Shown piece after piece: positions 1 to 35,048 of a DNA stretch of 43,025 nucleotides; the first letter of the stretch is position 1; each line of letters begins with the position of its first letter. Below the pieces are notes generated by a model. It ran no database searches, was not told the origin of the DNA, and was given only the letters and a program-made list of their open reading frames with translations. Both the position numbers and the translations under genes were made by a program. This stretch comes from Octopus sinensis (Eukaryota): NCBI RefSeq assembly GCF_006345805.1, contig NW_021834899.1, positions 1 through 43,025 on the forward strand, in the 5' to 3' direction.

Positions 1-309
1 AATACAATTTACTATCATATTTAAACTTATGTCTGAAAAAATCAGGTCGATTGGATCTACACACGTGGGGATCTCGGGGGTGTTTTGTCGGGAAATAAAG
101 ACTCATTTTTAGTCAGAAATATGTAAAGTTCAGATCCCGCTTGCAACCAAAAACGCTCAAAAAGCTTTTCAAATTTAACCTCCCCCTATGTAGTCAAAAA
201 AAGTCGAAATTTATTCTGGGATTTTGGCCATTTTTTCAAATTTTATATTATTTTTGGACGCTGAATTCAAAAATGTTATCAGATATGAGATTACACGGAA
301 GAGGAGGGA

Positions 310-531
310 AACCATGGCTTCATACGGTTAATCGTCTCCTGAACTTTCCACGTGGCTTCTTTGTAATCTTGATGTTTTGCTGCAATAATTAGATTGTCAG
401 CGTATGATAAAAGGATTGTATCTTCGTCGTTTGGATTTGGGAGATCTCTTGTAAATAAATTGAACAGGATTGGTTATAAGGAGAATCCTTGTGGGACCCC
501 GTTTGGGAGGCATCGTTGTTTTGATTTTCGG
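310..531 (-). mobile_element. Non-LTR retrotransposon RT fragment (second copy at ~18151-18385)
   Basis: Minus strand reads RCLPNGVPQGFSL*PILFNLF...LLSYADNLII, matching the GVPQG and YADD RT motifs. Confidence 0.8.
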
Positions 532-752
532 CTAACACCGTGCAAGCACTGTTAAATGCTTTAACAGTAATAAAATAATGGTATATTTTTTAAAGTATTT
601 AAATTTGTTAATAAGATCGGGTTATGTCGGATGTAGATGATGATACACAGACGAACAATCAACTGAATTTTCACATTAAACAAAAACAGGATTTCATAAA
701 TATTTCAAATTCTGAATATAAAATGTAATAATATTTTAATATTAATTTTGAC

Positions 753-1260
753 ATGCCGACGACCATTTGAGGTTTGAGTCACACTACAACTCCCTCAATG
801 AATCATCCTTCGACAGCAAAATAGAAATTGCTAAGAAAGAGTTGGCCGATCAGGAAGAACTGTATTCCACGTTGATATTGTCGATAGTATCCCTTCTTTT
901 CAACCGATGGACCAATTTAATAAATGAGAAAGGCACTGAGCACGAGGGAACAATGTCATGTTCTGACACAATCCAAGTATTTATTTATTGCTATTTCAAG
1001 ACTCTTCTCGGTCTTTTCAGAATATTTTCCTGCGTTTCTCTGAACAACTTCGACGTCCCTCCCTCGCCCTGGGTTGCCTAGTTGTTGGTGGATTTGGGTG
1101 TGTGCAGAATCGATCAGCCTAATCCAGAACTGCCGATTTTTAATCTTTACTTTCTACTTTGAGGACTTCGAAACCTGTATTTGCTGGTAATACTAATATT
1201 CAGAGACCGACATGACTGTTGAAAATCCTACCATAATGATTCCATGAGAATCTTTTCCGT
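753..1260 (+). pseudogene. Disrupted multi-exon host gene of unknown function (second copy ~18620-19130)
   Basis: Coding-like stretch with candidate GT-AG introns at 977-1000 (24 nt) and 1177-1203 (27 nt). Copies A and B carry different stops, and B has lost the GT of the first intron. Confidence 0.4.
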
Positions 1261-1640
1261 GTTGACGGATACTTTGGATTTTATTGATTATATCTTAACT
1301 GAATGATTAAATATTTTATCTTTCAGTTCATGGTTGTGGCAATTTCACTTTTATAAATTAATTCTATAAACTGACTTACATATAGGGTGATTCGAAAATA
1401 ATGAATTTACACGACTTTCTGGAATATAAGAAACTTTGTTATGTGCAGTATAGAAAGGCTCTCCTGAATCATGTCCGCAACAAACTGAAACAAGTGCGGG
1501 AGTACGACTGGACGTACAGAGTAATGGATAAAATTGATTGAGGAGAGCGTTACTGCCATCAACAGTTATTTCCAATTTTGTTTGACTAGAGGGAATGCCA
1601 GACATGAATTGCAAGACATTATTGTGGTAATTTATTGTTA

Positions 1641-1700
1641 CAGTCTAACCTTCGTTTGGAACATTAATTGTTCCAAAACAAAGGTTGTTCCAAAAATCGT
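1641..1700. mobile_element. pogo/Tc1-mariner-like terminal inverted repeat (copy at 19506)
   Basis: TA|CAGTCTAACC start with internal ttggaaca/tgttccaa repeats, typical of pogo-type ends. Confidence 0.5.
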
Positions 1701-2149
1701 ATAAAAATTTACCGGTCTGCTTACCTTCTGTGTTTGTTTGGTTATTTTTACTCATTATTACAATAAACTTAATTGATTGATTGAACTTGCAAAAGCTTTA
1801 TCCAGTTTTCAATTTCATCAAAGATGATGTTTTTTATCATCTTCATTGTCGATTTTTTTTCTCTCACTTCTTATGAACTTTTCAATCTTCTGTTTCTAAG
1901 TATTTTCTTTTGGTTGATTGTGATAGAGAGCGGGTGGATATGATAGGTGTTTCTTCATCCACGTTTATTTCATTCAATTGCTTGGTAATAAAACTGGTTT
2001 CTTGCTCACATTCGCTCATCATTTCTTCATCTATTAATATATCTGGTAGAAATTTGGGCTCTTTTCCTCCTCCTCAGATAACTCATATGTATCATCCTCT
2101 CTCTTGACCTCAGAAAAGAGGCTTTTCACCTACATTGAGGTAATAAAGG

Positions 2150-2846
2150 AGTAATGCGCCAGCAAACAGCTCTCGTTAGCAATGGATAAATCCGCTTTCC
2201 TACAAATCAACTCGAAAAAGTCATCAGATCAGAGCTCTGGGCCCCTAACTGAAATTGTGCGCCCCAGCTGCATACGCTACCTGGGGCTTACAATCGACGC
2301 TAACTCGGGCTACCGTCTGCATGTCAAGAAAAAGAGAGCAAAAGCCATTGCGGCTTTCCGCCTCTTAAGAAGCATGCATCTGGATCCTAAGACATTCCTC
2401 TTCGTGTTCCATGCAACCATCCTACCCAGCTTGCTGTACGGAATGGAAGCATGGTACTACTCGAAAGATCTCGAGAAAATTTGCGGGAAATGCGAGAAAA
2501 TCCGACGCTACGCGTTGAAGCTAGCTTACAGGCTTGACCCGCGAGGCCCCGTCCCAAGCTGGGCGGAGACCAGATCCCCGGAGATACGACAGGTCATTGA
2601 GAAATCTATCCGATCTTTCCGGAAAAGAACTCAAGTGACCGACCTGTTTATCGATCGGAAACTCTCTGCACTCGTCAAAAATTAATGAATCTACTTTATT
2701 AATTCTGGCTTACGACAGATGAATTGGACGCAAGCTCAGAAGAGTTCAGTTGCCTTGGCATCAGTCTCGTCCTATCACCGTCCTCAATTCCTGTCACTTT
2801 CTCTTTCTCTGTTAATTACAATAAACTAAATTCATTCATTCATTCA
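2150..2846 (+). mobile_element. 3' end of a LINE (same family as 11255-13195)
   Basis: ORF 2182-2685 has the RT thumb motif IRYLGLTID and PSLLYGMEAW, followed by a 3' UTR with AATAAA and an (ATTC)n tail. MDKSA.L.INS is shared with the 11082 ORF. Confidence 0.85.
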
Positions 2847-2915
2847 CAATGTTGTTTAACTATATAAAACAAAAATAACTCGTCTGAATCGGTTCTGTCT
2901 GAAATAAAAAAAAAC

Positions 2916-3012
2916 ATGGCCAGAACTGAACAAACTGCTCGAAAATCTACTGGAGCGAAAGTTTCAAGGAAACAATCTTCTCGAATCTGCAAAATCTGCT
3001 CGCAAGTCTGTT
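2916..3012 (+). pseudogene. H3: Histone H3 N-terminal fragment
   Basis: MARTEQTARKSTGAKVSRKQ, then a frameshift to KSARKSV. A TATATAAA lies ~55 bp upstream. No histone fold follows. Confidence 0.85.
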
Positions 3013-3575
3013 TCACAATTTGCCATCATTGAGATATCCCCTCTGGTATTTACACTGTTTATAAGCTACTAGGTAGAATTGTGTTTTAATTAAAATTATC
3101 TTAATTTTTAGTTACCCAATTATTAATAGAAAACATAATAAATTGTGGCACGTGTGAGCACTCTTTTGACATACCTTGTTGTTCTGTTACATTATTTGGT
3201 CAATCATTATTTTTTTATTTAATTGGATTAGAAGGAATATTTTGCGATGTAGTTTCTTTTAATTAATAAATTATCTGAAATTTCATCATTTTTAATATTT
3301 GCGAGTTTATTCTTTCAATCTGTTTATATCGTTTATTTGAAATCTTCTCATTTATCTTTATTCATTGAATTTTACCTTATTTTTTGATAGAAAGTTCTAT
3401 TCTTTATATTCTTATGGCAAACTTTTATTTATTTGTTCCCGGATTTGGCGATCTTGTATTGTAGCGCCCTAAAATCTAAAATGATCAATTTCTACCAAAT
3501 TTTAATCATTATTGTTATATTTTTTTTCTAGACTTTTTTTGTAAACTGAACACGAATTTAATTATTGTTATATTA

Positions 3576-4690
3576 TGTCACGGTCCACGAGTGTGCCTAT
3601 GCCGTAGGTGTGCCTCCATCGCAATTTTTTTCCGTTTTTTTGTAAATCGGTGCATCTATTATCGATTAGTCCTAAATCATTATTTATTTAGTTTTTTGTT
3701 ACTTATTGGAAATATTCCAATGTCGGTGATTACAGCAACAATAAAAATACTGAAAGTATCACAATTTAAATATTTATATATTTCCTGATTTTATAAAATA
3801 TGTTTTTAATAACTAATATATATAAAAAAATTGAGTAAAAAATTTTTTAATTAAAAAAAATCTATATGGATGGATTGACCCTAACTCTAACCCTAAGGGT
3901 GCATTAACTCTAAAACCTAATCATTTAAAATTACAAAAGAATGTTTTTATAATTTTTTTAATTGTGAAAAATGTTTTTTTACCAAAATCCCCTCATCATT
4001 CTCAACTTCATAGTTGTCGCCATTCTGTTTCACAACTTTATATATAGTCGTATCCACCTGGTCGTAAAGCGGCATCGTTCGATGTGCCGGATTTGTGTTA
4101 AAATCTCCTCTTATGAGGACAGAATCACCACTTCCTATACACGTTTCATCATCCTTCCATCTCCTTCTTTTTTGCATTTTTTCCCCTGCCCTGATTGTGT
4201 TCCTCAATGCACCATGACATGCCTATCAACATGCATTAAAATAAATTACCTGAACTACTTCCACCTTGGGTTCAAACGCAATGAGATTATTTAAATCATC
4301 GCAATTAATTTTTGGAGGATACTGGCAGCCAGTAAAAAGTAAGAATGGAGTTTTTTGTGTTGTCTCGTGGACGGTCGTATTGTATCTGAATACGATCCTT
4401 CCAAGAAATGGCATATAACTCCCAAATGTTCCTTCTGACACACTTGTTGAAGACAACCATCTTTTAATCGACTGATTAAATCTATTGAATGAATACTAAA
4501 ATTATACCTTTCAACTTGTCCCTGAACCCATGGTCCACGAGGACGCCCAAAAACATGTTTGGTCCCAAACTCCTCACAAAACTTAACCATTTTTGAGTTT
4601 TTAAACTCTTTTCCATTATCTGTATGCAGTATGAGGGGAGGACCATTCGTATAAAAGATTTTCCTGATAAGATTTACAATTAGAGAACGA
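3576..4690 (-). mobile_element. Ginger-like (Gypsy-integrase-type) DNA transposon, 3' half
   Basis: GPPLILHTDNGKEFKN...GRPRGPWVQGQVER|26-nt intron 4482-4507|FNQSIKRWL and YNTTVHETT.KTPF. TGT terminus at 3576, preceded by TATTA. Confidence 0.8.
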
Positions 4691-4712
4691 AAATAATTAT
4701 CGCAATCTAAAG

Positions 4713-5570
4713 CTACTGATGATCGAGAAGACGTTGCCCCTCAGGTTGGGAGCAAGGGGAGGACTGGAAAATGTTGTTCAGAATTGCTTCGTCAAATTTA
4801 AGAAAGCGCATGTACACATTTAAGGAATCTGGTTTGGATAAGAAACCTTGAACGAGAGTTGCAAGCTGACTTCGCGAACCGGCCTGAAAAGTCTCAGAAC
4901 TGAAAGGAAGAAGCGCATCATGTGAACGAGCGATCGAGTTATCAAATAAAACGTTCTCCGTAAGCCGTTGTAGGTCTCGGTAGCGCTCAATGGTTCTATC
5001 ATTCCTTTGAATTGAATGTAGATCTGACGCTAAGTACATCTTGAGGTAAATGCTTCCGAAGTTTGGTAGAAGATTCGCCGTAGATGGGTCCCAGAAATAG
5101 TTTCTGTGAGCCGACTGCGAACGGTCAATTAGGGGGAGGAAAAGACGGAGGCGGAGATCCTGCTTCTGAATTGAAAAATCGCCGATGGCGTTCTTCCATT
5201 CCAATAAGTAATCAGGAAAAGGAAGATCTCGGATATTGAGACCTCGATAACTATCAAGTACTTGCTGGATTTCCGGGTCGAATGCATGGCTTTGGTAGGC
5301 TTCCAGAATCAGGTACATCACACAGTGTGCTATGTAAAGCTGGCATCCCGCGAGGGTACAATCAGATAGACGCTGCTGTGGAACAATGCTCATCACTACG
5401 GAATAAATTCGAGAAATGAGTGGTCCGAAAAAGAATGTATCTGGAGTATAGTCTATCCATGTTATGGTCGACGTCGGTGAACAAAAAGATTTTGAATCGG
5501 CCAACAATATGAAAGGGGTGAGATTTACTTCGTAACTCTTTCGTTGTGCCTTGATCATATCGCCTTTCAT
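4713..5570 (-). CDS. 285-aa intronless ORF, probable endogenous viral element resembling a partiti-like dsRNA virus capsid
   Basis: Intronless and GC-richer than its flanks. The motif order YTPD...LYIAHCVMYLILEA...DLPFPDYLLEWKNAIG...LLPNFGSI recalls partitivirus coat proteins (YxPD...LYFAILF..Q.LRA...LPIPGPL..FF.AL...LPN.P). Recalled similarity only. Confidence 0.45.
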   Translation of the reverse strand: MKGDMIKAQRKSYEVNLTPFILLADSKSFCSPTSTITWIDYTPDTFFFGPLISRIYSVVMSIVPQQRLSDCTLAGCQLYIAHCVMYLILEAYQSHAFDPEIQQVLDSYRGLNIRDLPFPDYLLEWKNAIGDFSIQKQDLRLRLFLPLIDRSQSAHRNYFWDPSTANLLPNFGSIYLKMYLASDLHSIQRNDRTIERYRDLQRLTENVLFDNSIARSHDALLPFSSETFQAGSRSQLATLVQGFLSKPDSLNVYMRFLKFDEAILNNIFQSSPCSQPEGQRLLDHQ

Positions 5571-6751
5571 CTCGTTTCCCTCCTGATGGAGGTCACGTTC
5601 AAAAAGCCATTAACCATAGCCTGAGGATTAGGCGTGATTGACCTAGAGAACATGAATTTAGGGTGCTTTATCATTGCCGCTATTGCACTCGTACACATAA
5701 AGTATCCAGGCAGCGACATAGAGCTAAAAGCAGAGGCTTTAACAAGGCCTAATCCCTTCTAATAAATGCATAAGTGATCCGGATTTAGGACTTCAAAACA
5801 ATGCCCTATGAACCTACTCACTTCATTTACATGAGCAGATGCAAATAGAGATTCTACCATTACAGCTCTTTCCAGCTCCCTTGGGAACGCTGCACATAGT
5901 GATACTACACGTGACAATACTGCATTCCCTGCATTGTAGAAAGGGATAGTACAGAATCGTAGTGCAGACATCGGATCTTCAGGACATGTGTACAACATTT
6001 TGTCCAAGAGACAGCAAAGCTTATCTAATCCTCTGTCTGGTAGATACTTTTGGTACATTTTCAAGACCAAAGACCTCTCAGGCTGGTATGCTGGGTCCAA
6101 ATTGCGCATCACGGTGTGGTATCTGTCCATGAGAGGATCTACTGCATCCGGGTTTCTTTCGGCTGCATGAGCAAATCTTACAGGCGAGAGCGCTTTCATT
6201 AAGGCAACTCTCCACTCTTCAAGTGTTGCTCTTCCTCCTTCTGCACCAGACTCCCCAAAATTCATGGCCATCTTTGCTGTTCTGACTTTGAAACCTTTTT
6301 CAACTAAGGAATATTCTGTGATATCCTGATACTCTTCAGTGATTTCAATGTCTCCAAAATTCGCGGGAGCATCAAATGTATAGTTTATTAAGAAGATAGC
6401 TAGACTGGATGTCACTAAATCCTGGTTAAAGTCAGTCATTCGACTCAAAGTATTTATTATCGCTCGATCGTTCTTCGTATATTTGTATTTTAGCTCTATC
6501 ATAAATGGTCTATATTCGCGAGCGAAGGTGCCAACCTCCATCTTAACATTCATGTTAAGAAGGATCGGCCCTCCACTCATGTACACTTTCTGATAACTAG
6601 GGTTATCCCAGTCTTTGGGTTGTAAAAATTCCCCGAGAGGAATTGTGCGAGGTTTTATTTCATCTTCTTCTTCCAGACCGTGTACCTTTTCTATCTGTTG
6701 ATATTCACTTTCTCCAATTGAATCTTTTACAAAATCTGCGAAGTTTCTCAT
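5567..6751 (-). pseudogene. Endogenous rhabdovirus-like (Mononegavirales) nucleoprotein gene with one internal TAG (5759-5761), C-terminally truncated
   Basis: LMD...YQP...YLPDRGLDKLCCLLDKMLY...SALRFCTI aligns without gaps to vesiculovirus N as recalled (LMD...FEP...WGNDSNYTKIVAAVDMFF...ASFRYGTI). Past the stop the frame continues KGLGLVKASAFSSMSLP, matching the N motif FGLSSKSPYSSVKNP. Confidence 0.8.
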
Positions 6752-6756
6752 ATATG

Positions 6757-7118
6757 ATGACTAGGGCAACCGGAAAGTTGCTCATAATAATGTAAAAAAT
6801 TGACCTTAAAAGTCAACTAAATTGCTTTAAAAAATAAAAAAAGTTGACATAATATGCTTAAAAAGTTGCCCTAAGAAACAGAAATTTATTTATTAAAGCA
6901 CATTAAATAATATTTAACATTTTCAGGTAGGAAATTTCTATCTTTGGTTAAAATTTTGTGAAGAATAGAAAATGATCTTTCTACTTCACACGATGTTGCC
7001 GGACAATCCAATAATAATGCGTGGTGAAATGGAGTAATTGGTAGCTTAGATAACTCCATTATTTTGAAAATGTCGTTTCTTGAAATTCGTAAGCTTATCT
7101 CCGAAGTGACCACCACTC
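6757..7118 (-). mobile_element. hAT-like transposon 3' end (dimerisation-domain fragment plus terminus)
   Basis: CPATSCEVERSFSILHKILT.DRNF hATC motif. The terminal sequence atgactagggcaacc recurs inverted at 33135-33149. Confidence 0.7.
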
Positions 7119-7119
7119 A

Positions 7120-9145
7120 ATGATAATGAGAATGAACTGTTCTCCACATCCCATACTGAAACCAACTTATTTCTATGATTACGAAAACGCAGATTGGAAT
7201 GCTTTCGCAAAGTACGTCGATTCAAGGCTCCAGAACTTCCACCCTGAGAATTTTTCTTCCTTGGACAGAGCAGTGGAAAGCTTCAACAAAACTATCATAG
7301 ATGCAAGGAATTTGATTATCAGAAGAGCATGTATAAGAAGTGGGAGCTCAAAATATGATTCAAGAACAAAAAAACTAATCAGAGAAAGAATCAGCCTCAA
7401 GAAAAGAAAGTATCGACCCAAAGGAATCATCGATCGAATCAGGGCTCTAAACATGCTTATTACGAATAATACCAACCAAGTCCAAAGGAAGAAGCTCAGC
7501 CGAATCTCTAGAGCTATGAATAAACAAGCCTCTATTTCGACCATGTGGACGATGTTGAGACGCTTGAAGAATCCTGACGAGCGTAAAACAGAAACATACC
7601 AGCTCAATCTAAACAATTTTATGAAACACTGTGTCAAGATTAGTCATATTCCTTATAAAAAAATGAACTCACAGCCAAGATTAAAATCAAAGCCATCCAA
7701 AGGGCCCCCGACGACTTATTTTCTTCCTGAAGAGGTGTCTGAAACAATCTCGAATCAGAAGAAAACAAACTCATGTGGACCGGATGGAATTCCACTTAAT
7801 CTACTAAAACACTTGGGCCCTGTTTCAATAAATGCTTTAACCACGATCTATAACACGTCATTAATCACGAACGCTATACCGAACTTATAGAAACTATCAA
7901 AAATCCGGCCAATATTAAAACCTGGAAGACCGAAGAACGACCCCGGCTCCTATAGACCAGTATCCCTTATATGTGTGTTGTCAAGAATCTTGGAAAAACT
8001 GGTCCTAAAACATATTCGACCTTTCCTCCCACAATCTACATTCCAACATGGATTCAAGGAAGGATTGTCAACGACCTCCTTCCTTACCACACTAACAGAT
8101 TTCATAAATGAAGGACACAAAAATGCAGGAAAAATCGATTGTATGCACTATCGACATTGAAAAAGCGTTTGACTCCGTCCCGAGGAAGATCCTAATTCAA
8201 AAGATATTTGGTACAAATATTTCTACACCTATGAAGCTATGGATTGCGAATTTTTTGAGCGTACGTCGTGGGAAAGTGTGCGTCGGGAACGAGAGTTCAA
8301 GATCACGCTTATTGCCCAATGGTGTACCCCAGGGTTCCTTTTTATCCCCGACCCTCTTAAACTTGTTTCTGAATGATCTCCCGGCTCATATGGATAATAA
8401 TGACATACTACTCTCCTATGCCGATGACATAGTTGTCGCATCTAGGGATGTAAATGTCGAATACGCGAAGGAAAGACTACAAAGAATACTGGACTACTTA
8501 TATATAGATGGCTATATGAAAACAGACTACATGAATGTTCCGAAAAGTCAGCAGTCACTCTATTCAAGAAAAATAGGAAGATGGGGACGAAAACTATTGA
8601 TGTCACGTTGAACGGAATTCCAATACCACAAAAGAAAACACAGAAGATATTGGGAGTAACGCTTGATACTTTCCTCTGTTTTTCACCTCACGTAGAATCG
8701 ATCGTATCAACCTGTATAAAGAAGATCAATTTTGTAAAAGCCTTCCTATGGAACTGTGGGAGAACTTATCCGCCAGGGGTAGAGACCCTTTACAATCAGT
8801 ATATCGAGCCAACAATAGGCTATGCATGTGCTGCTTGGGGCAGTAACCTGGCGGCAACGAACCGGCTAAAAATCGAAAAAATTCAAGAAAGATCTATCAA
8901 CCTACTGAAGGACCACACCGATAGGGAAATTGTCCATAGAACACTGGAGTCTCTTGTAGAGGCAAATGGGGGGGATCGTGGAAATGGACCACAAACCATT
9001 CACCGTACATACAGAAAGTGTGTGGGGTCACGGTCGGAACATCGTGAAAAGATGGCTCGACTGTTGAGAAGTGTCGGAATCACCTGAACGTGTTAGTTAA
9101 TTGGTTAAGACGGTGATTCTGTTTGGCTTAAATAATAATAATGTA
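7120..9145 (+). mobile_element. 5'-truncated LINE with degenerate RT
   Basis: SCGPDGI, YRPVSLICVLSRILEK, DIEKAFDSV, GVPQGSFLSP, YADD and KILGVTLD. It has a stop and frameshifts and ends in an (AAT)n tail. Confidence 0.92.
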
Positions 9146-9149
9146 ACTA

Positions 9150-9470
9150 TCAAAATATATCAAATAATCATATAACTCTCTTAGGAGATACAGAAAACAT
9201 GATACAAAGAAAATCACTTGCAACTTTCGCGCTCAAAAGATTAAACAACATATGGTTGAGAGGCAAACAAATTTCTGCGTTTTTAAAAATCAAACTTTAC
9301 ATTATGTTCCTAAAACCAGTCCTACTGTACAACTCCTCCTCTTGGGCACTCACATTGCAGGAAATGGAAAATCTCAAAATGCTGAAAGTGCAGGAAATGG
9401 AAAATCCTTCCACAGAATGCAGCTGAAATACATCCTAGGAATCTTTTGGCCAAAACGGATTTCAAAAGAT
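9150..9470 (+). mobile_element. RTE-like LINE C-terminal fragment (copy ~28140-28435)
   Basis: LKIKLY...KPVLLYNSSSWALT...SFHRMQLKYILGIFWP. Confidence 0.75.
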
Positions 9471-10139
9471 TAAACAACAAAACGGATTTCAACATCAATA
9501 TTCTTAGTAATATTGAAAACAATTGAATAACTTTGGACTTGGAAAAAATGCAGTTTTTTAGAAAAATTTGTGAAATTGTAGATGTGGTCTGGCAAATAGA
9601 CGGTGACGGATGTGATTGTTAGATTCGCAATATGTGATTCAACATTCACAAAAGTATACATTCGGTATTTTATTCTCTGGGTTAAAATCCAGTTACAGGC
9701 GAATCCTCTTTTTGTACGCAAAGTTATTATATAATTTAGTTTGGACGGTATATAAAATAAAGATTAAATTAAAGAAAAAAATCAACAGATTGTATTCAAC
9801 AATACTGTCTTTATATACAAACTAAATCAAAAAATGCACTAATCACTGTTAATAATGTTTATCAGCATTTATAGATGCCTTCAAATCGACTCCCTTCGTA
9901 TAAGAGAAGATTAAAAGAACCAATAAACATAACAATAATGAATAGACAAAAATAAACAGAAAATAAAAAAATTGTAAATAAGTTAGTAATAATAAGAATA
10001 CTGTGTACAAATTTAATTTTTATAAATACAAAATTTCATAGTGCATCACAAGAAAAACTAATAATAAGCGTGAAAATACACCGGTATAATTGATTGTTTA
10101 TGTATCAATTATTTTTTAATTCTAATTAATTATAAAGTA

Positions 10140-10612
10140 CAGTAAAACCTCTGGTGCTCGCCACCTCTGTTACTCGCCACCTCTATTGCTCGCCACATAT
10201 TTTTCAAAAAATTAAAATTTCTAGTAAATTTTGATAAATATTCTATTGCTCGCCATTTTCTAAATCTCGCCATTAATTTTTAAAAATATTTTTTTTGTTA
10301 AACTATTTTTTATATAAAATATTTCAACCACGCTAAATTTAACATGCGTAAGTGCACAAGATTGTCTTTTACTGAAAAACGTCGGATTATTGCGTACATG
10401 GAGGAGAACAAAAGTCTCACGATGGACCGTATAGCTTACTTTTTTTCTTCTGTTTTGAAGAAAAAAAATATCTCGAAGGGCTTGTGAACGATTTAAGACT
10501 TGGAAAAGAGAAAATAATGTCTACTGATCCTATTTTCTCCAATAAGAAGAGATTATCTAACTTAACTTATTCTGTTATTGACACCGAACTATTAACTTGG
10601 ATGGAATATGTC
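10140..10612 (+). mobile_element. pogo/Tigger-like transposon 5' end, truncated
   Basis: TA|CAGTAAAACCTC TIR with repeated ctcgccac units. ATG at 10344 gives MRKCTRLSFTEKRRII... and then YSVIDTELLTWM, a CENP-B-type HTH. Confidence 0.8.
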
Positions 10613-16485: not shown

Positions 16486-16937
16486 TCGTATGATTGCTTG
16501 TGTTATATCAGACATTGTGCAATAGAGGGTCACATATATATCATAAACATTATCTTAAAAAATCGATGAACGCTGTTTTGCTTTAATTAAAATATTCATT
16601 AGAATCAAAAATTATGATTATGATAATTTATAATAAAAAATTATCAATCCTAAACTAGATTAAATTTTTGTCTAGTCAGTTCTATTAAAACCGATCATAA
16701 AATTTTTTCTGGGTTATTCAAAGGTACAGGTTATATTTAATTTCATTCCACGCAATTCTTATATCACGTTGACCTGATCGGCGGGGTTATCATACTTAAT
16801 ACAAACGACGTCATTTTTTATTTCAATCGGAATTATAACATGAATGATTACAATAACACATTTTTTGCCTGCAATCCTTATGAAGATTTTTTTTTAATTC
16901 TTTTGACCACCAAAATTTAAGGAGATTTCCAGATAAC

Positions 16938-17670
16938 ATGACATTTCAACCTATGTACCAGATTCCCGACAATGATTTGTTTTTAAACCATTACCAGATG
17001 AATTCATATGATTTCATACAGGATTATCGAATTTTCGATAACCCTTATTCAGATTACAATCAGCCTTTCATCCAATATGAAATTGCTCGTCAGCAAATTC
17101 CTGTGACTTTGTACCAGCCTGATGTCAACGATTTGAGTCTTGCCATTTCCAATAATTACAAGGAAGACAATGTGCCTCATCTATTTACTGAACAGGCAAC
17201 AGTAAATGACGACATGCTTCAAAGAAAGTCTTTGGTAGAATTAGGAAACTATTTCAAGGCTAAAAGAATGAACTTTGGTTACTCACAGTCCGAGATGGCC
17301 ATTATAATGAAGAGAGGCGGGTTCCCCGTGTGTCAAACGACTATATGCAGATTTGAGTTGGGTAAACTCCCAACTACTGCAATGGAAAATCTAAAAGATT
17401 CTTTTTTGATTGTTCTAGAATCTCTGAAGAAAAACCCAATTTCCAAGTCCCAATTGAATTCGCTCCCGAAAGCCAGAAAGAAACGAACATGTTTTGATAA
17501 CAAAACCATAGAATACCTCGAAAATATTTTTTCAGTCATCGTTCAGCCAAACAAAGAAGAATCGGGAAGATTGTAGCAAAAACTGACTTGCCAGAATCTG
17601 TAGTCCGGAAGTGTGGTTTGGAAACAGAAGACAGAAAAAACGTCAAACTTTTTCTTCACATGATCTATGA
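16938..17670 (+). CDS. Divergent intronless POU-domain homeobox gene with two frameshifts in the homeodomain (pseudogene or consensus error)
   Basis: POU-specific box FKAKRMNFGYSQ...CQTTICRFE...L...MENLK, then RKKRTCF...LENIF. After shifts at ~17560 and ~17609 it reads IGKIVAKTDLPESVV and VWFGNRRQKKR, with TGA at 17668-17670. Confidence 0.88.
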
Positions 17671-20391
17671 AATTTTCAATAAATACGAGCTTTTTTATCG
17701 TGTTATTTTCATGTCCTGACATTAAATAGTCAATTTTAAATACATATTCGAACAATTTCCTTTATATTTATTGAAACACGTGTTTATCAAAAAGGCTTTG
17801 ATTTGGAATGGACGAAAGTCCAAAAAAAGGTTGAACAGGCTAATACAATTTACTATCATATTTAAACTTATGTCTGAAAAAATCAGGTCGATTGGATGTA
17901 CACACGTGGGGATCTCGGGGGTGTTTTGTCGGGAAATAAAGACTCATTTTTAGTCAGAAATATGTAAAGTTCAGATCCCGCTTGCAACCAAAAACGCCCA
18001 AAAAGCTTTTCAAATTTAATGTCCCCCTATATAGTCAAAAAAAGTCGAAATTTATTCGGGGATTTTGGCCATTTTTTCAAATTTTATATTATTTTTGGAC
18101 GCTGAATTCAAAAATGTTATCAGATATGAGATTACACGGAAGAGGAGGGAAACCATGGCTTCATACGGTTAATCGTCTCCTGAACTTTCCGTGGCTTCTT
18201 TGTAATCTTGATGTTTTGCTGCAATAATTAGATTGTCAGCGTATGATAAAAGGATTGTATCTTCGTCGTTTGGATTTGGGAGATCTCTTGTAAATAATTG
18301 AACAGGATTGGTTATAAGGAGAATCCTTGTGGGACCCCGTTTGGGAGGTATCGTTGTTTTGATTTTCGGTTATTCATTATACCGACTAACACCGTGCGAC
18401 TAACACCGTGCAAGCACTGTTAAATGCTTTAACAGTAATAAAATAATGGTATATTTTTAAAGTATTTAAATTTGTTAATAAGATCGGGTTATGTCGGATG
18501 TAGATGATGATACACAGACGAACAATCAACTGAATTTTCACATTAAACAAAAACTGGATTTCATAAATATTTCAAATTCTGAATATAAAATGTAATAATA
18601 TTTTAATATTAATTTTGACATGCCGACGACCATTTGAGGTTTGAGTCACACTACAACTCCCTCAATGAATCATCCTTCGACAGCAAAATAGAAATTGCTA
18701 AGAAAGAGTTGGCCGATCAGGAAGAACTATATTCCACGTTGATATTGTCGATAGTATCCCTTCTTTTCAACCGATAGACCAATTTAATAAATGAGAAAGG
18801 CACTGAGCACGAGGGAACAATGTCGTGTTCTGACACAATCCAACTATTTATTTATTGCTATTTCAAGACTCTTCTCGGTCTTTTCAGAATATTTTCCTGC
18901 GTGTCTCTGAACAACTTCGACGTCCCTCCCTCGCCCTGGGTTGCCCAGTTGTTGGTGGATTTGGGTGTGTGCAGAATCGATCAGCCTAATCCAGAACTGC
19001 CGATTTTTAATCTTTACTTTCTACTTGAGGACTTCGAAACCTGTGTTTGCTGGTAATACTAATATTCAGAGACCGACATGACTGTTGAAAATCCTACCAT
19101 AATGATTCATGAGAACTTTTCCTGTGTGTTGACGGATACTTGGATTTTATTGATTATATCTTAACTGAATGATTAAATATTTTATCTTTCAGTTCATGGT
19201 TGTGGCAATTTCACTTTTATAAATTAATTCTAAAACTGACTTACATATAGGGTGATTCGAAAATAATGAATTTACACGACTTTCTGGAATATAAGAAACT
19301 TTGTTATGTGCAGTATAGAAAGGCTCTCCTGAATCATGTCTGCAACAAACTGAAACAAGTGCGGGAGTACGACTGGACGTACATAGTAATGGATAGAATT
19401 GATTGAGGAGAGCGTTACTGCCATCAACAGTTATTTCCAATTTTGTTTGACTAGAGGGAATGCCAGACATGAATTGCAAGACATTATTGTGGTAATTTAT
19501 TGTTACAGTCTAACCTTCGTTTGGAACATTAATTGTTCCAAAACAAAGGTTGTTCCAAAAATCGTATAAAAATTTACCGGTCTGCTTACCTTCTGTGTTT
19601 GTTTGGTTATTTTTACTCATTATTACAATAAACTTAATTGATTGATTGAACTTGCAAAAGCTTTATCCAGTTTTCAATTTCATCAAAGATGATGTTTTTT
19701 ATCATCTTCATTGTCGATTTTTCTTCTCTCACTTCTTATGAACTTTCAGTAACTGCATTATATTCGTCTTTAGCAAACAGTTATCTTTGTTTCTAAGTAT
19801 TTTCTTTGGTTGAATGTGATAGAGAGCGGGTGGATATAATAGGTGTTCTTCATCCACGTTTATTTCATTCAATTGCTTGGTAATAAAACTGGTTTCTTGC
19901 TCACATTCGCTCATCATTTCTTCATCTATAATATATCTGGTAGAAATTTGAGCTCTTTTTCCTCTCCTCAGATAACTCATATGTATATCCTCTCCCTTGA
20001 CCTCAGAAAAGAGGCTTTTCACCTACATTGAGGTAATAAAGGAGTAATGCGCCAGCAAACAGCTCTCGTTAGCAATGGATAAATCCGCTTTCCTACAAAT
20101 CAACTCGAAAAATCATCAGATCAGAGCTCTGGGCCCTAACCGAAATTATGCGCCCCAGTTGCATACGCTACCTGGGGCTTACAATCGACGCTAACTCGGG
20201 CTACCGTCTGCATGTCAAGAAAAAAGAGAGCGAAGCCATTGCGGCTCTCCGCCTCTTAAGAAGCATGCATCTGGATCCTAAGACATTCCTCTTCGTGTTC
20301 CATGCAACCATCCTACCCAGCTTGCTGTACGGAATGGAAGCATGGTACTACTCGAAAATCTCGAGAAAATTTGCGGGAAATGCGAGAAAAT

Positions 20392-21541
20392 GGCTATGCG
20401 ACAACTCGCCTATAGACGAGTTGTCGCCTAACTCGCCTAAATTTATTTGGCGACAACTCGCCTACTTAAAATAAATAAAAAATTATTTTTACCAGATTAA
20501 TCTAATTAATTAAAATTTCAACAATTTTTTTACTTTAATCTTTATTATGACTGACTTTGAACTGCTTAAAAGCCAAGAAATGGCAAACTTTTACTACACC
20601 AGAACTATTTGTATAATACAAATAGAAAAAAAGACGGTCTTACCTATTGGAGGTGCAGAAATCGAGAATGCAGGGCGAGGTGCACGGTGGATGCTCAAAA
20701 CAAGTTGAGCACAAAAAATGCTCATAACCATGGCCCCTTTGAGGATCATGAGATAAAAAGCATGAAACTATTTTCTGACCTGAAAGATGCCGCAAAGGCG
20801 TCAGAAGAAGACAGAACTATGAATGTGGTGTCAAGAAGCCTCATTGGAGCCAATGTTGACGTCATTAAAATATTGCCAAAGGAACGTTCATTGACTCGTC
20901 TCGTTCAACGGGAAAGAGAAACACTGATACCAAATTTTGTTCCGACCATTCCTAAAATTCCTGAAAGTTTGCGATACAGAAAATGCCTACTGTGCATTAT
21001 TTGAAGAAATAAAGACACTTGTTGTTACTTCACCAGCAATTATTTAATTGATTTTGAAAAGGGGTTAATTAACTCCACAAAATCAGTTTTTTCGTCGTCT
21101 AATGTATTTGGCTGCAATTTCCATTTCGGCCAAATGATATGGCGGAAAAAAACATGTCTTGGTCTTGTGGGAGCCTACAAAGACGTTTCATCGTGGGAAC
21201 GAAAATTATTGAGGAAATGCTACCATTTAGCTTTCATCACTGTGGAAAATGTTTTATTGAAATTTGAAAATTTTTTTTGATGCGACAGGAATGGAGTGTC
21301 TGCGATAGACTGCAAAAAGGAACTTGAACTGAGAATAGCATGTGAAAATTTTCATGAATTTGAAGTAGATTGCTATTTTAAGCTAATTGATGGTTGATTT
21401 GCTTTAAAAGTTCAGATAAAAAGTACTGTTTTAAAATTTTATTTTATTTACCCTTAAAATATTTTTCTTCGTAGACGAGTTGTCGCCAAAAATTTAGGCG
21501 AGTTAGGCGACACTCGCCTGTAGACGAGTTGTCGCTCAACG
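20392..21541 (+). mobile_element. Internally deleted Mutator-like element (FLYWCH-MULE)
   Basis: TIRs of ~70 bp built from gcgacaactcgccta units. FLYWCH finger YLY...TYWRC...CRARC...HNH and MULE motif GCNFHFGQMIWRK. Absent from copy A. Confidence 0.88.
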
Positions 21542-21931
21542 TTACAGGCTTGACCCGCGAGGCCCCGTCCCAAGCTGGGCGGAGACCAGATCCTCGGAGA
21601 TACGACAGGTCATTGAGAAATCTATCCGATCTTTCCGGAAAAGAACTCAGGTGACCGACCTGTTTATCGATCGGAAACTCTCTGCACTCGTCAAAAATTA
21701 ATGAACCTACTTTATTAACTCTGGCTTACGACAGATGAATTGGACGCAAGCTCAGAAGAGTTCAGTTGCCTTGGCATCAGTCTCGTCCTATCACCGTCCT
21801 CAATTCCTGTCACTTTCTCTTTCTCTGTTAATTACAATAAACTAAATTCATTCATTCATTCACAATGTTGTTTAACTATATAAAACAAAAATAACTCGTC
21901 TGAATCGGTTCTGTCTGAAATAAAAAAAAAC

Positions 21932-22028
21932 ATGGCCAGAACTGAACAAACTGCTCGAAAATCTACTGGAGCGAAAGTTTCAAGGAAACAATCTTCTCGA
22001 ATCTGCAAAATCTGCTCGCAAGTCTGTT
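21932..22028 (+). pseudogene. H3: Histone H3 N-terminal fragment, copy B
   Basis: Same as 2916-3012. Confidence 0.85.
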
Positions 22029-22588
22029 TCACAATTTGCCATCATTGAGATATCCCCTCTGGTATTTACACTGTTTATAAGCTACTAGGTAGAATTGTGT
22101 TTTAATTAAAATTATCTTAATTTTTAGTTACCCAATTATTAATTGAAAACCTAATAAATTGTGGCACGTGTGAGGATTCTTTTGACATACCTTGTTGTCC
22201 TGTTACATTATTTGGTCAATCTTTATTTTTTATTTAATTGGATTAGAAGGAATATTTTGCGATGTAGTTTCTTTTAATTAATAAATTATCTGAAATTTCA
22301 TCATTTTTAATATTTGCGAGTTTATTCTTTCAATCTGTTTATATCGTTTATTTGAAATCTTCTCATTTATCTTTATTCATTGAATTTTACCTTATTTTTT
22401 GATAGAAAGTTCTATTCTTTATATTCTTATGGCAAACTTTTATTTATTTGTTCCCGGATTTGGCGATCTTGTATTGTAGCGCCCTAAAATCTAAAATGAT
22501 CAATTCTACCAAATTTTAATCATTATTGTTATATTTTTTTCTAGACTTTTTTTGTAAACTGAACACGAATTTAATTATTGTTATATTA

Positions 22589-23696
22589 TGTCACGGTCCA
22601 CGAGTGTGCCTATGCCGTAGGTGTGCCTCCATCGCAATTTTTTCCGTTTTTTTGTAAATCGGTGCATCTATTATCGATTAGTCCTAAATCATTATTTATT
22701 TAGTTTTTTGTTACTTATTGGAAATATTCCAATGTCGGTGATTACAGCAACAATAAAAATACTGAAAGTATCACAATTTAAATATTTATATATTTCCTGA
22801 TTTTATAAAATATGTTTTTAATAACTAATATATATAAAAAATTGAGTAAAAAATTTTTAATTAAAAAAAATCTATAAGGATGGATTGACCCTAACTCTAA
22901 CCCTAAGGGTGCATTAACTCTAAAACCTAATCATTAAAATTACAAAAGAATGTTTTTATAATTTTTTTAATTGTGAAAAATGTTTTTTTACCAAAATCCC
23001 CTCATCATTCTCAACTTCATAGTTGTCGCCATTCTGTTTCACAACTTTATATATAGTCGTATCCACCTGGTCGTAAAGCGGCATCGTTCGATGTGCCGGA
23101 TTTGTGTTAAAATCTCCTCTTATGAGGACAGAATCACCACTTCCTATACACGTTTCATCATCCTTCCATCTCCTTCTTTTTTGCATTTTTCCCCTGCCCT
23201 GATTGTGTTCCTCAATGCACCATGACATGCCTATCAACATGCATTAAAATAAATTACCTGAACTACTTCCACCTTGGGTTCAAACGCAATGAGATTATTT
23301 AAATCATCGCAATTAATTTTTGGAGGATACTGGCAGCCAGTAAAAAGTAAGAATGGAGTTTTTTGTGTTGTCTCGTGGACGGTCGTATTGTATCTGAATA
23401 CGATCCTTCCAAGAAATGGCATATAATCCCAAATGTTCCTTCTGACGCACTTGTTGAAGACAACCATCTTTTAATCGACTGATTAAATCTATTGAATGAA
23501 TACTAAAATTATACCTTTCAACTTGTCCCTGAACCCATGGTCCACGAGGACGCCCAAAAACAGTTTGGTCCCAAACTCCTCACAAAACTTAACCATTTTT
23601 GAGTTTTTAAACTCTTTTCCATTATCTGTATGCAGTATGAGGGGAGGACCATTCGTATAAAAGATTTTCCTGATAAGATTTACAATTAGAGAACGA
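22589..23696 (-). mobile_element. Ginger-like element 3' half, copy B
   Basis: Duplicate of 3576-4690, with the intron at 23489-23514. Confidence 0.8.
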
Positions 23697-23718
23697 AAAT
23701 AATTATCGCAATCTAAAG

Positions 23719-24576
23719 CTACTGATGATCGAGAAGACGTTGCCCCTCAGGTTGGGAGCAAGGGGAGGACTGGAAAATGTTGTTCAGAATTGCTTCGTCA
23801 AATTTAAGAAAGCGCATGTACACATTTAAGGAATCTGGTTTGGATAAGAAACCTTGAACGAGAGTTGCAAGCTGACTTCGCGAACCGGCCTGAAAAGTCT
23901 CAGAACTGAAAGGAAGAAGCGCATCATGTGAACGAGCGATCGAGTTATCAAATAAAACGTTCTCCGTAAGCCGTTGTAGGTCTCGGTAGCGCTCAATGGT
24001 TCTATCATTCCTTTGAATTGAATGTAGATCTGACGCTAAGTACATCTTGAGGTAAATGCTTCCGAAGTTTGGTAGAAGATTCGCCGTAGATGGGTCCCAG
24101 AAATAGTTTCTGTGAGCCGACTGCGAACGGTCAATTAGGGGGAGGAAAAGACGGAGGCGGAGATCCTGCTTCTGAATTGAAAAATCGCCGATGGCGTTCT
24201 TCCATTCCAAGAAGTAATCAGGAAAATGAAGATCTCGGATATTGAGACCTCGATAACTATCAAGTACTTGCTGGATTTCCGGGTCGAATGCATGGCTTTG
24301 GTAGGCTTCCAGAATCAGGTACATCACACAGTGTGCTATGTAAAGCTGGCATCCCGCGAGGGTACAATCAGATAGACGCTGCTGTGGAACAATGCTCATC
24401 ACTACGGAATAAATTCGAGAAATGAGTGGTCCGAAAAAGAATGTATCTGGAGTATAGTCTATCCATGTTATGGTCGACGTCGGTGAACAAAAAGATTTTG
24501 AATCGGCCAACAATATGAAAGGGGTGAGATTTACTTCGTAACTCTTTCGTTGTGCCTTGATCATATCGCCTTTCAT
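23719..24576 (-). CDS. Partiti-like capsid EVE ORF, copy B (285 aa, open)
   Basis: Differs from 4713-5570 at two residues (LPFPDYL vs LHFPDYF). Confidence 0.45.
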   Translation of the reverse strand: MKGDMIKAQRKSYEVNLTPFILLADSKSFCSPTSTITWIDYTPDTFFFGPLISRIYSVVMSIVPQQRLSDCTLAGCQLYIAHCVMYLILEAYQSHAFDPEIQQVLDSYRGLNIRDLHFPDYFLEWKNAIGDFSIQKQDLRLRLFLPLIDRSQSAHRNYFWDPSTANLLPNFGSIYLKMYLASDLHSIQRNDRTIERYRDLQRLTENVLFDNSIARSHDALLPFSSETFQAGSRSQLATLVQGFLSKPDSLNVYMRFLKFDEAILNNIFQSSPCSQPEGQRLLDHQ

Positions 24577-25750
24577 CTCGTTTCCCTCCTGATGGAGGTC
24601 ACGTTCAAAAAGCCATTAACCATAGCCTGAGGATTAGGCGTGATTGACCTAGAGAACATGAATTTAGGGTGCTTTATCATTGCCGCTATTGCACTCGTAC
24701 ACATAAAGTATCCAGGCAGCGACATAGAGCTAAAAGCAGAGGCTTTAACAAGGCCTAATCCCTTCTAATAAATGCATAAGTGATCCGGATTTAGGACTTC
24801 AAAACAATGCCCTATGAACCTACTCACTTCATTTACATGAGCAGATGCAAATAGAGATTCTACCATTACAGCTCTTTCCAGCTCCCTTGGGAACGCTGCA
24901 CATAGTGATACTACACGTGACAATACTGCATTCCCTGCATTGTAGAAAGGGATAGTACAGAATCGTAGTGCAGACATCGGATCTTCAGGACATGTGTACA
25001 ACATTTTGTCCAAGAGACAGCAAAGCTTATCTAATCCTCTGTCTGGTAGATACTTTTGGTACATTTTCAAGACCACAAGACCTCTCAGGCTGGTATGCTG
25101 GGTCCAAATTGCGCATCACGGTGTGGTATCTGTCCATGAGAGGATCTACTGCATCCGGGTTTCTTTCGGCTGCATGAGCAAATCTTACAGGCGAGAGCGC
25201 TTTCATTAAGGCAACTCTCCACTCTTCAAGTGTTGCTCTTCCTCCTTCTGCACCAGACTCCCAAATTCATGGCCATCTTTGCTGTTCTGACTTTGAAACC
25301 TTTTTCAACTAAGGAATATTCTGTGATATCCTGATACTCTTCAGTGATTTCAATGTCTCCAAAATTCGCGGGAGCATCAAATGTATAGTTTATTAAGAAG
25401 ATAGCTAGACTGGATGTCACTAAATCCTGGTTAAAGTCAGTCATTCGACTCAAAGTATTTATTATCGCTCGATCGTTCTTCGTATATTTGTATTTTAGCT
25501 CTATCATAAATGGTCTATATTCGCGAGCGAAGGTGCCAACCTCCATCTTAACATCATGATCGGCCCTCCACTCATGTACACTTTCTGATAACTAGGGTTA
25601 TCCCAGTCTTTGTCTTTGGGTTGTAAAAATTCCCCGAGAGGAATTTGCGAGGTTTATTTCATCTCCTTCTCTCAGACCGTGTACCTTTTCTATCTGTTGA
25701 TATTCACTTTCTCCAATTGAATCTTTTACAAAATCTGCGAAGTTTCTCAT
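24573..25750 (-). pseudogene. Rhabdovirus-like nucleoprotein EVE, copy B (frameshifted)
   Basis: Duplicate of 5567-6751 with the same TAG plus several extra indels. Confidence 0.8.
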
Positions 25751-25755
25751 ATATG

Positions 25756-26116
25756 ATGACTAGGGCAACCGGAAAGTTGCTCATAATAATGTAAAAAATT
25801 GACCTTAAAAGTCAACTAAATTGCTTTAAAAAATAAAAAAAGTTGACTTAATATGCATAAAAAGTTGCCCTAAGAAACAGAAATTTATTAAAACACAACA
25901 TTAAATAATATTTAACATTTTCAGGTAGGAAATTTCTATCTTTGGTTAAAATTTTGTGAAGAATAGAAAATGATCTTTCTACTTCACACGATGTTGCCGG
26001 ACAATCCAATAATAATGCGTGGTGAAATGGAGTAATTGGTAGCTTAGATAACTCCATTATTTTGAAAATGTCGTTTCTTGAAATTCGTAAGCTTATCTCC
26101 GAAGTGACCACCACTC
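25756..26116 (-). mobile_element. hAT-like 3' end, copy B
   Basis: Duplicate of 6757-7118. Confidence 0.7.
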
Positions 26117-26117
26117 A

Positions 26118-33593: not shown

Positions 33594-35048
33594 CTAAATA
33601 ATATATCCCAAGTCAAGTTTTTTCTTCGACTTGACCTCTTGGATTCCATCAAGAAAGTCAATATGATAGATTGTATCCTGCTCCTTCCTCAGCGCAATCA
33701 TCCCCTTAAGAAATGACCCACAACTCCAATACTGCCTCGATGCACACAGCACGACACTGTGACCCATTAAAGTCCTCTGTCGACCTTGCCAGCTCAAAGT
33801 AGTTGACATCCTTACTAATCTTTTATACCAACTCAAAAAACCCCACAGTCATTTTCCTTGAGTGAATTTGCAGAATTCGAAGACGAGCTTCCTCATTCGG
33901 GTTGGGAAATTCGATTTTCTTGTCAAATCGTCCTGAGCGAAGCAAGGCCGTGTCCAGAATATCAACTCTGTTGGTTGCTGCGATCACTTTAACGTCTGTG
34001 TTAGGCAGGAATCCGTCCATTTGAAACAACAACTCAATCATCGTTCTCTGCACTTCTCGATCCCCAGTTTTCTCGCTGTCAAACCTCTTAGTCCCTGAAA
34101 TCACTCCAAACACTAAAACCAATGGCATCCAGTTCGTCTATAAAGATTATGGCCGGAGCCTTCTCTTTGGCCAAATTGAAAGCATCCCTCACCATTTTTG
34201 CCCCATCGCCGATAAACATTTGCACAAGCTGAGGACCGGCCATTTTAGGAATGTTGACTTGGTCTGGGCTGCACATGCCCGAGCCATCAACGTCTTTCCC
34301 GTACCAGGGACACCGTAGAGAAGTACTCCTACCGAACTTACCAATATGAGTACCCACCCTTAGGAGGCTGAATTCCAAGAGACTCAAATTTATCTTTATG
34401 TTCCATTGGGAGGACTACAGCTTCAATCAGCTCTTCAATTTGTTTTTCGAGCCCCCCAATGTCACTGTACTCCTCCGTGGGTCTCTCGTCTACTTCCATT
34501 GCCTTTACTCTCGAATCATACCTTATTTTATAAATAATATAATACTCTCTTGGAAGCTTCTCCAAAATAAGATAACTGTCCTTATTGACCCCCTAACAGT
34601 AAAACACGTGGATACATACGACAAGGTCATCCGGTTTTAAATCCTCTGGCTCTACTAGTCCAATGACTGGAAGAAAGTATGTCTGTCGGGTTGAGGTCTT
34701 TACAATAGCACATTTTCCTTTTCGCTGTGAGTCCAGGTTTATTGTTGCTCCTTCTTCCTCAAATTGGTCATTATCCAACTCCAGGATCTAAGGAATGAGG
34801 TTAAAAAGAACCTCAGCGACGTTGGACACCAAATATGGGAGCATTCGGTTGACTTTCAGTTTTTCTTTGCTCTCCTTATTTTTGTTTTTCATGAACTGAA
34901 TGTCATATTTGAGGGTCTGCATCTCAGAGCGCATGCACTGTGGTTTGATTATGGTAGATTATACGAATATTTCATCTTCTATTAGTTTTGTCCATCCTTT
35001 TATCTCCTCGGTAGGGAGTTTAAGAACGTCCTCATCACCGGAAGGCAT
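33594..35048 (-). CDS. PSMC3: 26S proteasome AAA-ATPase subunit 6A (Rpt5), ~414 aa, 9 exons
   Basis: [24 protein letters not shown], Walker [24 protein letters not shown], Walker [24 protein letters not shown] introns at 34938-34964, 34788-34811, 34593-34619, 34522-34545, 34329-34357, 34095-34119, 33815-33841 and 33705-33732. One base is missing in the T-run at 34243-34246. Confidence 0.96.

Follow-up and report, generated by a model that had tools for sequence, protein, structure and literature searches.

Fossils of rhabdovirus nucleoprotein (N) genes are common in arthropods. In the mosquitoes Aedes aegypti and Ae. albopictus, these nrEVEs or NIRVS comprise fragments of N, G, and L that are, like those reported here, flanked by transposons, clustered, rearranged, and duplicated (PMC5497376, PMC7161354); the viral DNA (vDNA) behind them is ascribed to the reverse transcriptase of retroelements acting by template switching, followed by insertion (PMC5497376). 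A second system comparable to the present one is that of Betaplatrhavirus beihai (the current name of Beihai dimarhabdovirus 1; PMC12451637) and of the platrhaviruses of parasitic flatworms, for which, as for the present fossils, a parasite concealed inside the sampled animal is suspected to be the true host (PMC12451637, PMC9241645). Beihai dimarhabdovirus 1 is suspected of infecting a flatworm in fish gills, and the parasite-associated rhabdovirus radiation has been placed at the root of the vertebrate rhabdoviruses (PMC9241645). Partitivirus-like endogenous elements of animals constitute a third described system (PMC3407116).

The locus studied here is situated in a window of 43,025 nt (the whole stretch of DNA analysed, i.e., positions 1 to 43,025 of contig NW_021834899.1 in the Octopus sinensis assembly GCF_006345805.1). 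We regard it as likely that this locus is a fused fossil of two viruses, copied by a retroelement into the germ line of what is probably a dicyemid, and that it is now most likely inert. The features concerned are the following:

4271..4690, minus strand: 5'-truncated fragment of an rve integrase (PF00665, E=1e-9), next to the chimera on its 3' side
4764..5600, minus strand: second viral fossil, from which the leader and some 9 initial codons are missing; probably the capsid segment (segment 2) of a partiti-like virus
5596..5604, minus strand: junction of the two viral fossils, at 5600, with an overlap of one base; spanned by one short-read contig
5600..6758, minus strand: copy A, rhabdovirus-like N fossil, with a leader of about 7 nt, ATG at 6751, 330 open codons, a stop at 5761-5759, and 53 further N codons
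5720..5758, minus strand: KGLGLVKASAFSS, corresponding to the motif G(L/I)SxKSPYSS of rhabdovirus N, downstream of the stop
6762..6873, no strand assigned: MITE-like element of 112 nt with terminal inverted repeats of 9 nt, adjoining the 5' end of the N fossil
23770..24606, minus strand: partner fossil of copy B
24606..25750, minus strand: copy B of the N fossil, with stop and junction as in copy A and with extra frameshifts, which are partly perhaps assembly errors
33594..35048, minus strand: host marker, an RPT5-like gene (proteasome ATPase) interrupted by 8 introns of 24-29 nt with GT-AG borders

Copy A is read on the minus strand from 6751 to 5567 as 330 codons, the TAG, 63 codons, and a second stop. 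An earlier sequence-only reading of this DNA had recognised both the 330 open codons, which indeed run from the ATG to the TAG, and the continuation of the frame beyond it; of the 64 additional codons it had counted, however, the frame provides 63, and only 53 are N-like. The last 10 represent out-of-frame read-through, because homology to N stops at 5600 and homology to another ORF family starts there. With reference to a natural homologue of 582 residues, copy A corresponds to residues 1-386, its 3' part being cut off at the junction. The counterpart of the RNA-binding-region motif, which the same reading had located behind the stop, is present: GLVKASAFSS is identical to the published central-region motif G(L/I)SxKSPYSS (PMC4234470) at 5 of the 9 specified positions and has F for Y, while K and P differ. 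The core GLGLV...S.FSS is found again in both lineages of N described below.

Neither stop nor junction is a long-read error, because one short-read contig of run X1 covers both (4826-6565, 1 mismatch, no gap); run X1 possibly represents the source sample and is no independent support. In the sequencing runs X2 and X3 the fossil is not covered, which proves nothing. Short-read depth is high across 6789-6921. The chimera unit is surrounded by transposon pieces (LINE, rve, and MITE-like), among which an LTR element was not identified, and a scan for bacterial promoters, irrelevant to the locus, gave chance level only. The marks by which an nrEVE is recognised are all found: flanks composed of transposon sequence, genes of the host elsewhere on the contig, a stop together with a truncation, and presence in a short-read DNA run. 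Copy A is a broken, truncated non-retroviral endogenous viral element, very likely of a rhabdovirus N gene.

That the encoded protein is a rhabdovirus nucleoprotein is assumed with high confidence, because several weak lines agree (Pfam, Foldseek, and the presence of G, L, and a G-L signal in the same assembly); no single score lies above a curated threshold and no one test is decisive. Among 24,736 Pfam families, copy A with its stop read as X matched Rhabdo_ncap (PF00945) as the sole family (E=0.031), such that the profile comparison proposed in the sequence-only reading leads to the expected family, but at 13.6 bits against a curated cut-off of 26 bits. The alignment places residues 232-363 on profile positions 173-302 and thereby includes GLVKASAFSS; the 330-codon ORF alone matched no Pfam family. 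The longer homologue reached 16.0 and 16.8 bits, again below the 26-bit cut-off, and 8 of the 15 aligned N copies, in an alignment spanning both lineages, matched PF00945, all below the cut-off (best E=6.7e-4); since they come from related copies, these matches are not independent. The gap-free similarity of about 60 residues to vesiculovirus N that the sequence-only reading had noted was not reproduced: searches of PDB sequences with phmmer (E<=1) and with profiles (E<=5 and E<=10) brought up not one rhabdovirus N of solved structure. No N homologue was found by the word-indexed protein search, in the atlas, or in viral and metagenome contigs, in agreement with the earlier suggestion of a divergent rhabdovirus-like N from an unsampled virus, and the full HMMER library searched with N yielded two repetitive matches only, which are probably spurious.

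Concerning structure, the AlphaFold comparison, likewise proposed earlier, was of divided outcome. The fold to be expected of N is helical and two-lobed. Both models are poor (pLDDT 36 and 38), and comparison with PDB folds gave nothing, a lyssavirus N being met only at rank 13 (E=1.1); in the Foldseek search of the trimmed model against BFVD, on the other hand, rhabdovirus or rhabdo-like nucleoproteins make up 13 of the 50 best matches, including 5 of the first 10, none of them at E<=0.001 and some of them presumed to be such from the virus name. With the full model, N of Beihai dimarhabdovirus 1 (538 residues) takes rank 3 in BFVD and is the sole nucleoprotein in the top 50.

One natural N homologue, of 582 codons, is followed by a second ORF (gene 2) in the P position, for which 17 matches in two similarity bands, as for N, were obtained; the junction between N and gene 2 is without the canonical A7 signal. 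L is represented by 33 matches on 16 contigs. A G fragment scores above cut-off and is joined to L via ATGAAAAAAA-C-AACA, to be compared with the rhabdovirus gene-end/gene-start signal TATG(A)7 ... AACA (PMC4234470). At this G-L junction (L050, G000:C9340:10375-14943) the signal is intact, which implies that genome-length or read-through RNA was captured and not a single mRNA. Of the rhabdovirus gene order N-P-M-G-L, the assembly shows N then gene 2, and G then L; no locus connects both halves, nor N to G or L. The best match of the L fossil is L of Beihai dimarhabdovirus 1 (47%, E=2.5e-88), the same virus whose N ranks third in the structural search. In an L tree of 300 columns, built from 8 fossil pieces and 29 of 39 hits (the other ten hits, and 5 of the 13 L loci whose pieces overlapped the region too little, are not included), the fossils constitute three lineages within a clade of their own (91/85); this clade is sister to Betaplatrhavirus beihai, the single named betaplatrhavirus available, at 84/78, and both together join the alpharhabdoviruses at 99/95. 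Judged by this tree, the L fossils belong within Rhabdoviridae and group weakly with a betaplatrhavirus, their tie to the N of copy A being indirect.

Further viral pieces accompany these genes. At L112:109-1024 (G000:C13496), a gene 2 fossil is joined gap-free to an ORF bearing a GDD motif, for which searches gave no identity and whose homologue in L022 adjoins an N fossil of the second lineage. A nodavirus methyltransferase fossil (L023:2955-3782, G000:C10696; PF19222, E=3e-12) is situated at most 1.5 kb from fossils of N and gene 2; a symplekin gene that contains tiny in-frame inserts lies nearby. The start of an unassigned ORF, possibly a gene 3, was seen at three loci (L023:6526-6696, L108:2308-2514, and L026:5255-5474): at two of them it comes after gene 2, and at the third it forms an in-frame fusion with a second-lineage N.

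The partner of copy A in the chimera is likely, though with less assurance than in the case of N, to be the capsid segment of a partiti-like virus. Its ORF has 22 matches in the assembly and none in Pfam, PDB sequences, the protein database, the atlas, or viral contigs; compared with 5 homologues, it shows pS of 0.75-0.94 (synonymous sites being saturated) and pN of 0.23-0.34. RdRp fossils (PF00680, E=2e-22, 8 matches), which we take to be partiti-like from their motifs, lie 1.3-1.5 kb from two homologues of the partner ORF. Partitivirus segments share their 5' termini. The leader of the capsid-like locus L040 matches that of the RdRp locus L090 at a score reached by none of 2000 shuffles, and no other non-self hit was obtained in 30,900 windows; for the leader of L044 against the RdRp leader, 2 of 2000 shuffles reach the score, and the leader of L035 gave no match. 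Shared segment termini as a partitivirus trait were not found in the accessible text of PMC3407116. While the sequence-only reading is supported as to a divergent N fossil, it had overlooked the 3' truncation, the fusion to this second viral ORF, and the many independent copies.

The chimera unit exists in two copies in the window and once in each of two sister contigs, as far as their sequence was retrieved, and stop and junction are common to all four copies of the locus. Positions 1-10146 and 17842-29112 of the window constitute a tandem duplication of about 10 kb; a FLYWCH-containing stretch of 1.1 kb (20392-21541) is found in the second duplication copy only, and a very divergent POU-homeobox ORF (16884-17576; PF00157, E=4e-8) lies between both copies of the duplicated unit. 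The short-read contigs of X1 exhibit the open-frame version of copy A without the frameshifts of copy B. Since these contigs match A and not B, we discarded the idea that copy A had merely arisen from copy B by duplication during assembly. Single-base indels in the window contig are unreliable, because the RPT5 gene exhibits a one-base loss at about 34240, a residual indel error, that is absent from two sister contigs.

Used as genome query, copy A gave 52 matches on 24 contigs (58 candidates scored), all at coordinates <0.35 Mb. Compared with 11 copies of the same lineage, it shows pS of 0.73-0.98 and pN of 0.03-0.15; a second N lineage exists at about 40-47% identity. With synonymous sites saturated and pN low, the N copies were functional genes while they diverged, and the simplest assumption is that this took place in the viruses, ahead of capture. 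The 24 N copies examined fall into 15 clusters at 90% nucleotide identity, or 13 if two non-overlapping pairs are merged, and at least 13 separate N captures from a diverged virus swarm are likely on these sequence comparisons. Part of the N diversity could stem from more than one co-sequenced parasite lineage, against which stands that only one type of RPT5 was found on the small contigs.

Concerning the carrier, the sequence-only reading had spoken of the germ line of one host; the fossil is located instead in a second organism hidden in the assembly, a tiny-intron animal and not the mollusc that is the main organism. The 8 introns of the RPT5-like gene were placed by hand and checked in the sister contigs, in both of which the gene splices to an ORF of 414 aa, whereas in a second RPT5 orthologue, on the chromosome-scale contig C2, one intron measures about 1.1 kb. 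Genes with short in-frame inserts are also found on two other N-bearing contigs. Molluscan haemocyanin is located on chromosome-scale contigs, its top database entry being presumably from squid. Dicyemids are common renal parasites, with about 75% of sampled cephalopods infected (PMC12953835), and for D. japonicum 36.7% GC, 49% repeats, and many LINEs are reported (PMC6736024). Among animals, introns of <30 nt are, according to the accessible text of PMC13644364, reported only in myxobolids (22-27 nt) and Dicyema. All 8 RPT5 introns are below this length, which also fits myxobolids.

From intron size and company, we consider the carrier to be a dicyemid with good confidence. Location of the fossil in the mollusc itself or in another tiny-intron passenger, e.g., a myxozoan-like one, is unlikely: it would agree with the similarly tiny introns of myxobolids and with decayed rhabdovirus-like pieces that the mollusc chromosomes possess on their own (N at G000:C9:72705869-72706150, L at G000:C23:23140149-23141653), but is opposed by the two distinct RPT5 orthologues of very different intron size, by the chromosome-scale contigs carrying 0 of the 52 N matches, and by the frequency of dicyemids in cephalopod kidneys, myxobolids being parasites of fish. 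The pieces on C9 and C23 are separate from, and more decayed than, the fossils on small contigs. As to the formation of the chimera in the probable dicyemid, rhabdovirus-like N RNA and partiti-like RNA would have been together in a co-infected cell, where the reverse transcriptase of a host retrotransposon would have copied viral RNA into DNA; a template switch between the two RNAs would have produced the junction at 5600, and the chimeric DNA would have been inserted into a germ cell of the tiny-intron animal, the various copies representing separate captures of diverged viruses. A template switch has a little better than an even chance of being the origin of the junction, and is slightly favoured because the joint is seamless. 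The competing explanation, by which two neighbouring viral insertions of the same orientation were joined by a later genomic deletion, has appreciable but somewhat less than even probability. It accounts for both partners being without sequence at the junction, with an overlap of one base, and is in line with the crowding of viral fossils on the contigs that carry them and with host transposon sequence that elsewhere separates a capsid-like from an RdRp piece; it would have to explain why not one host base is left at the junction and why in L112, too, gene 2 is joined without a gap to an unrelated ORF with a GDD motif, both observations being nevertheless compatible with deletion.

Concerning its present role, the locus is by a small preponderance to be regarded as an inert fossil, with a template for piRNAs as the main rival, possible although with only about one chance in three, and a useful protein product as quite improbable. 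In its more far-reaching form, in which antisense transcription in a repeat-rich cluster would yield putative piRNAs against both viruses as a working antiviral memory, the piRNA explanation is doubtful. Viral pieces are clustered, 12 of 44 contigs (sister contigs counted) carrying more than one viral gene type, and EVE-derived piRNAs have a precedent in Aedes (PMC7161354, PMC5497376); piRNA use is possible because a PIWI-clade gene (Piwi-like E=1e-24 vs AGO2 6e-13) is situated on a small N-bearing contig. Strand bias, however, which same-strand inserts of a flamenco-like cluster would show, is not significant, with 18 of 28 adjacent pairs co-oriented (p=0.09; copy B, the matches on C23, and three sister contigs set aside) and 14 of 23 distant pairs (p=0.20), and the LINE pieces in the window are oriented opposite to the viral ones. 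Piwi-domain genes were seen on the small contigs G000:C9497, C12468, C8702, and C7758, one of them clearly of the PIWI clade and with tiny inserts; piwi is not mentioned in the accessible text of the Dicyema genome paper. Very improbable is the domestication of copy A as a gene for a putative truncated, dominant-negative N. Its 330 open codons from the native start and the open-frame version in the short-read contigs, free of the frameshifts of copy B, would fit such a role; the product, however, would stop before the conserved motif and without about 250 C-terminal residues, a MITE-like element adjoins the start, and three substitutions in the N ORF that distinguish copy A from all three other copies affect two codons and are protein-changing. 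The partner fossil is equally open, and youth alone therefore explains the open frame. The dominant-negative product proposed in the sequence-only reading thus meets a stop that precedes the RNA-binding-region motif and is common to all four copies, and such a product would be unlikely judging from the sequence.

While the type of element is ordinary, the animal that carries it and the virus lineage behind it seem to be new. Should the carrier indeed be a dicyemid, the fossils would constitute a first record of viruses in that phylum within the openly accessible literature searched, in which no report of dicyemid viruses was found; in PMC11097642, Dicyemida are among the 31 phyla sampled, and viral reads may be listed in the supplementary tables of that paper. 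The radiation of parasite-associated rhabdoviruses would then reach further than the flatworms. The N captures, of which at least 13 are likely to be separate although the genome is small, speak for a chronic infection of the germ line, and a heritable defence by piRNAs in animals other than arthropods becomes open to direct test. There is also a warning in these findings: a viral fossil listed under the assembly of a host may be that of a parasite sequenced along with it. Rather speculative, and more likely wrong than right, is a broader proposal in which dicyemids would harbour an unsampled RNA virome, archived as germ-line chimeras by LINE template jumping and feeding a PIWI-based inherited memory. 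If true, this virome would comprise a new rhabdovirus clade near the flatworm betaplatrhaviruses and the alpharhabdoviruses, together with partiti-like and noda-like viruses, and mosquito-style antiviral memory would exist in a 30-cell spiralian parasite.

Despite the similarities to the known systems, there are several differences. Unlike the NIRVS of Aedes, the present fossils are found in a non-arthropod parasite with a small genome, with LINE, rve, and MITE-like flanks. Fossils of the P position, with their 17 matches here, were not detected in mosquitoes according to the accessible text of PMC5497376. The piRNA output and single-strand organisation of the Aedes elements would be at most putative for the present fossils. 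Betaplatrhavirus beihai is closest in L, in sequence match as well as in tree position, whereas the N of copy A is too divergent for a sequence match in the searches run. With the partitivirus-like elements of animals (PMC3407116), the assembly shares RdRp-like and probable capsid-like pieces with similar 5' leaders; unlike in those elements, the capsid-like ORF is without database match and is fused directly to the gene of a negative-strand virus.
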